Part shown: one piece after another, positions 5,870 through 7,641 of the stretch
How positions within the stretch are numbered: the first letter of the stretch is position 1
Layout: the number at the start of each line of letters is the position of its first letter
NCBI RefSeq assembly: GCF_003334255.1
Contig: NZ_QOWU01000095.1
Direction: 5' to 3' (one strand)
Source of the DNA: Escherichia coli
GTDB lineage: Bacteria; Pseudomonadota; Gammaproteobacteria; Enterobacterales; Enterobacteriaceae
Length of the DNA: 7,641 nt
Notes under the pieces: model-generated
Seen by the model: only the letters and a program-made list of their open reading frames with translations
What the model was told of the DNA's origin: nothing
Database searches by the model: none
Program-made: the position numbers and the translations under genes

Positions 5870-7641
5870 ATGAGCACTGATAAAGAAGAATTTGCACTAT
5901 ATTGCGAAGCAAAAAATGACAAAGTAAGAAAACGCCTAGGAATTAAAGGTGGTTTTTACTGGACTACAGCAAAAAAATTATCTGTTGCAATCTCCCGCTG
6001 CATTACCGCAATGGATGACAACGATTATGATGAAGACGACTTTAAAAAACCCGTCCGCGTCAATTTGCCCGTTGTTGACGACCTTCCGCCAGAAGGCGTG
6101 TTTGATACTGAATTCTGCAACCGCTATGAAAAAGGCGGGAAAGATGGCATCACAATGACATTTATCGGCCCTTCCCCCTCTGTTCAGGACAAACCAGCCA
6201 GCACTGACAATACCAACATCAACGGCGAAGCCATGACTGAGATTGAGGAGAGCATGCTTCTGCCTGTCTCCGGTCAGGAACTGCCCATTCGTTGGCTTGC
6301 TCAACACGGCAGCGAAAAACCAGTAACGCACGTTTCACGCGACGAACTCCAGGCATTACACATTGCACGGGCTGAAGAACTACCGGCTGTTACTGCCCTG
6401 GCTATTTCGCATAAAACCAGTCTGCTCGACTCGCTGGAGATTCGCGACCTCCACAAACTGGTTCGTGACACTGACAAAGTTTTCCCTAATCCTGGTAATT
6501 CAGACCTGGGACTAATAACTGCTTTTTTCGAAGCATACCTAGACGCTGACTACACTGATCGGGGTCTGCTGACAAAAGAGTGGATGAAAGGAAATCGTGT
6601 TTCACGCATCACCCGCACGGCTTCCGGTGCTAATGCTGGCGGTGGGAACAAAACCGATCGCAATCCGAATTTAGTACACACCCTCGACACACTGGATGTG
6701 GAGATTGCAGCAGCCACACTTCCGATGGATTTTAATATTTATGAAATTCCGGGCAGCGTTTATCGTCGCGCAAAAGAAGTAGTCCTGAACAAAGAAAGTC
6801 CGTTCAAAGAATGGTCCGCAGCACTTCGTGCAACCCCGGGTATTCTGGACTATTCCCGCGCCGCTATTTTTGCACTTATCCGAAGCGCACACCCTGAATT
6901 TTATCACTACCCGGGACGCCTTCAGGGGTATATCAACGCCTATTTGACGGAAACTGATCACGAGAACCCCAGCAAGGAAACTCTCACAGCTGCCCGGCAT
7001 ACGCCGGAAAAAGATATCCTGGAAGAAATTAACCGCGAGGTGGTTACTGAGCGTGAAACAGAAGAAGAAAAACCACAACCATCTGACGCAATGGCAGGTG
7101 AACAGGCAACAACTGAAACAATGGAACCGGATACAACTGAACATGGCCAGAACGCGCAGTCGCTGGATGCTCAGTCGCAGGTGAGTTCCGCTAACCAAGT
7201 AAAAGTCACCGCTGACGAAGTAAACAAAATTATGCAGGCAGCCAATATCAGCCAGCCTGACGCCGATAAGTTGCTTGCTGCATCACGTGGTGAATTTGTT
7301 GAAGGGATTAGTGACCCGAATGATCCGAAATGGGTTAAGGGGCTCCAGACCCGCGATTCTGTGAACCAGAACCAGCATGAATCGGAACGGAACTACCAAA
7401 AAGCGGAACAAAACAGTCCAAATGCGTTACAAAACGAGCCAGAAACGAAACAGCCTGAACCAGTAGCGCAACAGGAAGTGGAAAAAGTCTGCACCGCCTG
7501 CGGTCAGACCGGCGGCGGCAACTGCCCTGATTGTGGCGCGGTGATGGGCGACGCAACATACCAAGAAACATTCGATGAAGAGTATCAGGTTGAAGTTCAG
7601 GAAGATGATCCGGAGGAAATGGAAGGCGCTGAACATCCACA
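5870..7641 (+). CDS. recE: Long ORF truncated by the window end (at least 590 codons, no stop): RecE-like (exonuclease VIII family) N-terminal region, acidic, with an embedded CxxC-x7-CxxC motif
   Basis: Frame checked codon by codon from ATG 5870 (first start after the in-frame TGA at 5855..5857; GAGG 10 nt upstream) to position 7641 with no stop. It is absent from the ORF track, presumably because it has no stop in the window. Blocks such as [41 protein letters not shown] and [28 protein letters not shown] match recalled Rac RecE N-terminal sequence. The catalytic C-terminal domain would lie beyond the window. Confidence 0.6.

Follow-up and report, generated by a model that had tools for sequence, protein, structure and literature searches.

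A four-cysteine (Cys4) module of ~30-38 residues, carried by an Escherichia coli prophage protein with a RecE-type N-terminus, appears to represent an undescribed, narrowly distributed and portable family within the small zinc ribbons. Our analysis suggests that it probably forms a Zn(Cys)4 mini-ribbon and serves, outside catalysis, as a portable docking tag. The module lies near the right end of the window, by which we mean the whole stretch of E. coli DNA that was analyzed (7,641 nucleotides of contig NZ_QOWU01000095.1), in the linker that follows the RecE-type scaffold.

The Cys4 motif and the protein that carries it

On the plus strand, window positions 7490-7534 (DNA TGCACCGCCTGCGGTCAGACCGGCGGCGGCAACTGCCCTGATTGT) encode a CxxC-x7-CxxC pattern (CTAC-x7-CPDC) at residues 541-555 of an ORF product that starts with ATG at 5870 and stays open past the right window end. 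In-frame translation bears out the pattern that a sequence-only reading had reported there, and the composition of residues 488-620 (28 D+E versus 8 K+R, with 26 Q+N, in 133 residues) agrees with its description of the surroundings as acidic and of low complexity. The four cysteines form two CxxC knuckles, each extended to CxxCG and the second reading CPDCG, which is consistent with the C4 zinc-ribbon-like form that the same reading had proposed. Of the seven cysteines among the 590 residues that the window encodes, four fall in this cluster; with as many cysteines placed at random, a CxxC-x(2-20)-CxxC arrangement arose in 16 of 200,000 trials, or ~8e-5. The features of the window are as follows:

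5870..7641, plus strand: exonuclease gene, first 590 of 813 codons, from the ORF and its start codon; cut at the window end
6038..6436, plus strand: Pfam Exonuc_VIII (PF06630) N-terminal domain, residues 57-189 (E = 3e-35)
7271..7336, plus strand: conserved 22-residue motif upstream of the linker, common to distant Gifsy-1 and Klebsiella RecE homologues
7472..7585, plus strand: 38-residue module, residues 535-572, from alignment across contexts
7490..7504, plus strand: first putative zinc knuckle, CTACG (Cys541, Cys544), from translation; variants keep the upstream cysteines
7523..7537, plus strand: second putative zinc knuckle, CPDCG (Cys552, Cys555), its C, P, D, C and G invariant in a 61-sequence alignment
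7538..7573, plus strand: conserved module tail, with residues including Y invariant or nearly so
7574..7641, plus strand: acidic stretch leading to the C-terminal-domain junction at about residue 617
7335-7640 and 7427-7636, minus strand: antisense ORFs, which overlap the conserved coding region and are antisense by-products of it

Across its full length, the window shares 99.9% identity with a prophage of E. coli G1/2; for the gene segment, the DNA is 100% identical to the NZ_CP060083 CDS WP_115202336, which has 813 codons and is annotated as 'exonuclease'. In G1/2, the exonuclease gene sits downstream of a ydfABC-dicF-dicB block and a DUF1482 gene, and excisionase and integrase genes lie directly 3' of it. 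Gene order differs from that of the Rac prophage: the window-type gene is followed by xis and int, with no recT next to it in the 99.9%-identical G1/2 genome, whereas Rac recE is followed by recT, which in K-12 overlaps the end of recE.

The reference for comparison was the Rac prophage RecE of E. coli K-12 (exodeoxyribonuclease VIII; UniProt P15032). Overall identity between this protein and the window protein is 55%; BLASTP gave 59% for residues 58-617, identity reaches 90-93% at residues 121-240, and BLASTP found no similarity to K-12 RecE past residue 617. The two proteins are thus alike in their homologous N-terminal 617 residues, with the Exonuc_VIII domain, the Cys4 module and the acidic stretch behind it, but differ beyond them: K-12 RecE has a PD-(D/E)XK 5'-3' nuclease (PDB 3H4R, residues 605-866) where the window protein has a DnaQ-like DEDDh domain. 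This latter domain, an Rv2179c-like DnaQ-type DEDDh exonuclease (PF16473, residues 632-803, E = 5e-67), was read from the G1/2 gene, the in-window part of the gene stopping before it, and a C-terminal PD-(D/E)XK 5'-3' nuclease domain of the 3H4R kind is absent from the G1/2 full-length product. Likewise, the NCBIfam ExoVIII equivalog model NF007259 gave 942 bits, below its 1269-bit cut-off, with the match confined to residues 1-613 and profile positions 1-600 of 877, while K-12 RecE matched the same model over its full length with 1830 bits.

Since a RecE-type scaffold is here joined to a nuclease of opposite polarity, the window protein is, as judged from its domains, a RecE-type N-terminal scaffold fused to a putative DnaQ-like 3'-5' exonuclease and not exonuclease VIII. 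The label 'RecE-like' in the sequence-only reading thus holds for the N-terminal scaffold (PF06630) but not for the C-terminus, which is DnaQ-like rather than a RecE nuclease. Because of this predicted fusion, exonuclease VIII is the wrong annotation, and the wrong model, for the widespread E. coli prophage 'exonuclease' represented in the window. In lambdoid recombination modules, a 2025 survey likewise recorded DnaQ-like nucleases, along with 'RecE-2' proteins that have no nuclease domain (PMC12315714).

Conservation and distribution of the module

The sequence-only reading knew of no motif of this kind at the corresponding position in Rac RecE and proposed a possible lineage-specific module. 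K-12 Rac RecE does, however, carry CNACGQTGGDNCPDC at residues 517-531, aligned exactly with the window motif and with its four cysteines at residues 517, 520, 528 and 531. Compared over successive bins of 30 residues, the window protein and K-12 RecE are 93% identical at residues 541-570 versus 33% at residues 511-540, and the module is therefore an island of conservation that matches the N-terminal domain core in strength; over its full 38 residues (535-572), it is 84% identical to K-12 RecE. A lineage-specific insertion missing from Rac RecE is refuted by this aligned motif and is further contradicted by the presence of the module DNA in 3,618 of 5,426 complete E. coli genomes, at up to seven copies per genome. 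We regard that view as almost certainly wrong, although Gifsy-1 RecE and one Klebsiella RecE homologue, which have no Cys cluster at all, speak for it. What stands of the earlier proposal is that the module comes and goes at greater distance. The Gifsy-type proteins P0172 and P0143 have the module in the same linker, between an NVGGG motif and the nuclease domain. Gifsy-type RecE proteins, homologous in other respects, therefore have or lack the module in a single linker.

An HMMER search with residues 464-617 against 1.8 billion representative proteins found the Cys cluster in essentially every intact homologue spanning the region; a separate homologue search with the 154-residue segment gave proteins of no more than 269 aa, most of them fragments. 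When variants were anchored on the second knuckle only (CPxCG, then V/I/G/L and M/T/I), at least two cysteines occurred in the preceding 14 residues in 134 of 138 unique variants. Of the four exceptions, two are partial proteins whose upstream sequence is unrelated, one has an in-frame deletion, and one is a short fragment with a single upstream cysteine left. In the 61-sequence alignment, C7, C18, P19, D20, C21, G22 and Y30 (numbered within the module) are invariant, and C10, G15, G16, V24, G26 and T29 are at least 90% conserved; in an Aeromonas variant, the first Cys pair has moved to Cx6C. The alignment of the four cysteines across RecE homologues that the sequence-only reading had suggested as a check therefore found the putative ligands conserved, both in these 61 sequences and in the 134 of 138 variants.

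The module is under purifying selection. Across contexts, its 13 core codons show 3-7 synonymous changes versus 0-3 amino-acid changes, and since the differences between contexts are mainly synonymous, it is the peptide rather than the DNA that is constrained; a DNA-level element behind the conservation was rejected on the same grounds. The invariant and near-invariant residues of the tail point to selection beyond the putative metal ligands, although tail conservation could stem from folding alone. Alternatively, the Cys cluster might have no function and have arisen by chance, or be decaying, in a low-complexity linker; its location would suit this, since the region around it is poorly conserved, of low complexity and not required for recombination. 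This explanation is extremely improbable given the ~8e-5 chance under random Cys placement, the 93%-identical island amid poorly conserved flanks, and the invariance of Cys, P, D, G and Y in unrelated carriers whose DNA differences are mainly synonymous.

Within RecE-type proteins, the module occupies a disordered, acidic linker, with the RecE-type scaffold before it and, after it, a C-terminal effector domain that can be exchanged. The C-termini joined to the same scaffold and module are of at least four kinds:

Rac-type PD-(D/E)XK nuclease
Gifsy-type nuclease
DnaQ-like domain, the commonest form among the IMG/VR matches listed
short hydrophobic tail with no nuclease, in forms of ~680-690 aa
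other tails

The module is also found outside the RecE family: in P2-like (Peduoviridae) phages and prophages, the Dam methylases carry it as their last ~40 residues. These occur in Salmonella, Klebsiella, Enterobacter, Citrobacter, Yokenella, Trabulsiella, Kosakonia and Hafnia, with phages SI7 and phiT5282H as examples. The Dam family model is already fully matched by about residue 280 of the module-bearing P2-like Dam proteins, and it is the ExoVIII model, at positions 526-555, that matches residues 284-316 (E = 2e-5 to 2e-6). Small proteins of 79-190 aa (P0152, P0165, P0169, P0170 and P0184), whose N-termini are unrelated, likewise end in the module; the P0169 gene belongs to a prophage early operon, with RdgC, Dam and RecT genes on one side of it and an integrase gene on the other. 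A variant is internal to an Aeromonas phage protein.

The taxonomic range is narrow, namely temperate phages of Enterobacterales and Aeromonas. A search for the exact second-knuckle pattern in one genome each for 100,044 species yielded 15 confirmed loci, 13 of them from named Enterobacterales; the remaining two come from metagenome bins labelled Lachnospiraceae and Proteobacteria, and their sequences match Escherichia forms. In IMG/VR, over 550 viral contigs have DNA coding for the module, with diverse contexts obtained by restricting the scan to CPDCGPV variants, the unrestricted listing consisting of 80 near-identical E. coli loci. A plasmid search for the module gave nothing beyond the known contexts.

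Relation to known zinc-binding motifs

There is no dedicated Pfam or NCBIfam model for the module, which is detected elsewhere by the ExoVIII whole-protein model alone. Matches to curated zinc-ribbon families were all below threshold: the best was Pfam DZR (PF12773) at E = 0.005 with the first sequence, no alignment member reached E <= 0.001 against curated zinc-ribbon profiles, and a TFIIB-type ribbon profile gave E = 0.09. A DnaJ-type CxxCxGxG finger was rejected because the Pfam scan of the module returned no such match. Generic ribbons and rubredoxin-like CPxCG pairs (DZR, zinc_ribbon_2/3, TFIIB) resemble the module in being small and in having two CxxC(G) knuckles, the second of them CPxCG. 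Unlike generic zinc ribbons, however, the module has an unusually short, Gly-rich spacer of 6-7 residues and a family-specific conserved tail after the second knuckle. Our full-text literature search found no paper mentioning zinc or a CPDCG motif in RecE.

In a PDB sequence search, no solved structure covered the module: the window protein gave nothing relevant, and the sole match of K-12 RecE was 3H4R, at residues 605-866. AlphaFold2 modelled the 38-mer with low confidence (mean pLDDT 54, with the 61-sequence alignment), and for residues 455-813 with a hybrid 66-row alignment the mean pLDDT was 41, the DnaQ-like domain itself being poorly modelled. Foldseek gave 0 matches in the PDB with the low-confidence 38-mer model.

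A search of the PDB with the module profile returned marginal zinc-ribbon matches, the best being the N-terminal ribbon of MtrI (E = 0.023, aligned CEACGRESDTKYCNDCGKVM). This 15-residue four-Cys ribbon of the small Methanosarcina mazei protein MtrI (9QTR chain i) binds zinc as determined by ICP-MS (PMC12774963). MtrI differs from the carriers described here in being archaeal and having an unrelated partner (the Mtr complex), and its similarity to the module is marginal; it is best regarded as an analogue proving that so short a motif can bind zinc, not as a demonstrated homologue. In a different respect, the SEC-C motif (PF02810) at the C-terminus of SecA offers a parallel, as a non-catalytic, zinc-binding terminal tag of ~20 residues that occurs on unrelated proteins and docks SecB. 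SEC-C has a CxCx8C[CH] pattern and no sequence relationship to the module, and it is basic whereas the module is acidic.

Candidate functions of the module

Two 2023 reviews describe the first ~560-600 residues of RecE as 'of unknown function'. According to these reviews, full-length RecE promotes linear-linear recombination, and one of them terms this activity enhanced. The RecE region that holds the module is dispensable for nuclease activity and for RecT-dependent recombination. For a zinc ribbon so placed, the sequence-only reading had suggested a possible role in binding DNA or a partner protein. We consider a docking function for a Zn(Cys)4 mini-ribbon the probable explanation because the module is unneeded for nuclease activity or recombination, is grafted onto diverse enzymes and small proteins, and is usually placed at a terminus or in a linker. 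The two CxxCG knuckles and the glycine-rich turn would hold one Zn2+ by four thiolates in a mini zinc ribbon, and the conserved tail may pack against this ribbon or make its exposed face. The module would then have no part in catalysis or in the partnership with RecT. Instead, its most likely task would be to tether early phage proteins of DNA metabolism to one shared target inside the infected enterobacterial cell, its carriers being RecE 5'-3' exonuclease, the DnaQ-like fusion, nuclease-less RecE-scaffold proteins, P2-like Dam methylases and the small proteins. That recombination can do without it is equally compatible with a role that is small or purely structural.

The docking target would more probably be a protein than DNA, since the module, taken together with its RecE flanks, has an excess of acidic residues, and no basic or aromatic residue is conserved in its loop. 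The competing idea is a nucleic-acid-binding zinc knuckle that keeps the enzyme on DNA (ends, single strands or duplex) and raises processivity or targeting, for which the C-terminal zinc ribbons of topoisomerase I and retroviral CCHC knuckles serve as likenesses. All carriers of recognizable function act on DNA, whether as exonucleases of both polarities or as Dam methylase, the one invariant Tyr could stack on bases, and the reportedly enhanced linear-linear recombination with full-length RecE would be in keeping with such a knuckle. It is nonetheless unlikely: the module has a net acidic character (D20 invariant, mostly D27, and E32), basic residues do not consistently occupy the positions beside the knuckles (Q/R/H/K and N/K/H/F/Y), the glycine-rich loop contains no aromatic residue, and the segment around the module in RecE-type proteins is strongly acidic.

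An intermolecular, Rad50-like zinc hook seems quite improbable. In such an arrangement, CxxC pairs of two chains would share a zinc ion, so that scaffolds dimerise and bridge DNA ends, which would account for the otherwise unexplained linear-linear recombination phenotype of full-length RecE and would make use of two CxxC knuckles in a flexible linker. Four cysteines within 15 residues and a Gly-rich turn instead favour chelation within a single chain, and the module is also found on Dam methylase and small proteins, where end-bridging has no obvious use. Less probable still is a redox- or metal-sensing switch, or a rubredoxin-like iron site, regulating the attached enzyme or its stability. 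Rubredoxins also typically have CPxCG knuckles, and some Dam variants have additional cysteines beside the knuckles (e.g., GGGCCPDC and CDCCG). The spacing, however, is far below that of rubredoxins, rubredoxin-type aromatic core residues are missing, and the gene contexts give no pointer to redox functions.

Returning to the docking reading, the sharing of one module by P2-like Dam and small phage proteins suggests that they dock to a common target, and the module supplies a defined bait for finding it. More speculatively, and as a reading that we consider doubtful, the module might be a shared address tag that brings unrelated phage early proteins to a single host target, with SSB, the replisome or a DNA-end-processing complex as candidates. 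If so, the module would be the element by which the RecE N-terminal region promotes linear-linear recombination. RecE/RecT is a workhorse of recombineering, and while the presence of the module in textbook RecE limits the surprise, our analysis gives the RecE N-terminal region one defined, mutable element: four cysteines in a module of 30 residues, the linker's best-conserved island. Its possible contribution to the linear-linear advantage of full-length RecE is now testable with a single quadruple mutant.

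The RecE-like exonuclease gene

5870-7641, continuing at 7001-9442 of locus L001: RecE-like chimeric gene
6626-6661, plus strand: Gly-rich loop motif in the RecE N-terminal region, conserved in distant homologues
7335-7640 and 7427-7636, minus strand: antisense ORFs of 101 and 69 aa that overlap the zinc module

The product of the "RecE-like" gene is a chimera in which a DnaQ-like 3'-5' domain stands in place of the RecE 5'-3' nuclease: an N-terminal RecE scaffold leads into the putative zinc module, and after this comes a 3'-5' exonuclease domain of the DnaQ-like DEDDh type (PF16473). 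This combination of RecE scaffold and DnaQ-like domain accounts for the majority of the module-bearing IMG/VR proteins examined. Within the scaffold, the Gly-rich motif is retained by RecE homologues as distant as those of Gifsy-1 and Klebsiella; this loop departs from the canonical Walker A pattern. The gene has no adjacent recT and is directly followed by xis and int. Minus-strand annotation is absent from the region corresponding to the two antisense ORFs in G1/2, an E. coli strain whose prophage is 99.9% identical to the window. The most plausible explanation of these ORFs is that they are antisense by-products of the conserved coding region.

The dicB-type operon and the repressor

3368-4006, plus strand: intact CI/LexA-like repressor ORF, 212 aa
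4218-4832: ydfA/B/C-like ORFs, upstream of DicF
5174-5225, plus strand: DicF antisense sRNA, full length (Rfam RF00039, 76.7 bits, E = 4e-16)
about 5400-5588: dicB ORF, downstream of DicF

The DicF region, which also carries a DUF1482 ORF downstream of the sRNA, is a Qin-type dicB operon lying immediately ahead of the exonuclease gene. At the repressor site, the 99.9%-identical G1/2 genome has only a 339-nt "LexA family protein" CDS annotated, and the matched region in that genome is 6 bases shorter than the window; this discrepancy may reflect an indel or a difference in annotation.

Variants of the scaffold

In the 756-aa protein P0132, a natural in-frame deletion has taken out ~290 residues together with the first zinc knuckle, so that CPDCGAVMG follows immediately on GANAGGGN of the N-terminal region. 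Because GGGN is present at both ends, the junction looks like a microhomology deletion. Another class of ~680-690 aa (L114, L126-L152 and L165; P0123 and P0140) combines the RecE scaffold and zinc module without a nuclease domain, and its C-terminus is a conserved hydrophobic stretch (DWKRQLVLAAVYGLCANPAC...IAIMIANRLENFGGDKS). PMC12315714 mentions "RecE-2" proteins, to which this class may correspond. At two Escherichia albertii loci and in one bin labelled Lachnospiraceae (L172, L173 and L176), the DnaQ-type proteins that carry the module, 811-823 aa long, have a different N-terminus (MSKVFICAAIPDEQ... or MSKIFICAAIPDEQ...), a further sign of scaffold mosaicism.

Cysteine clusters and Phe-ending tails in other module carriers

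L170 5537-6541: gene directly after that of the small module-bearing protein P0169; 334-aa product

This 334-aa protein contains a different Cys cluster, CSRCKGHG...CPDCGGRGK, with a weak match to DnaJ_CXXCXGXG, and Cys-rich mini-motifs seem to recur in the L170 early operon.

The E. coli SSB C-terminal tip is DDDIPF. In P2-like Dam methylases, the tail C-terminal to the zinc module resembles this tip where it closes with a final Phe after acidic or small residues, as it does in 31 of 45 such tails (L003, L007, L009 and L090-L169), examples being GAFDDLEAF, GALDADPF, GAFDGAEGF and CETQEPF. By analogy, such tails may be candidate SSB-tail mimics.
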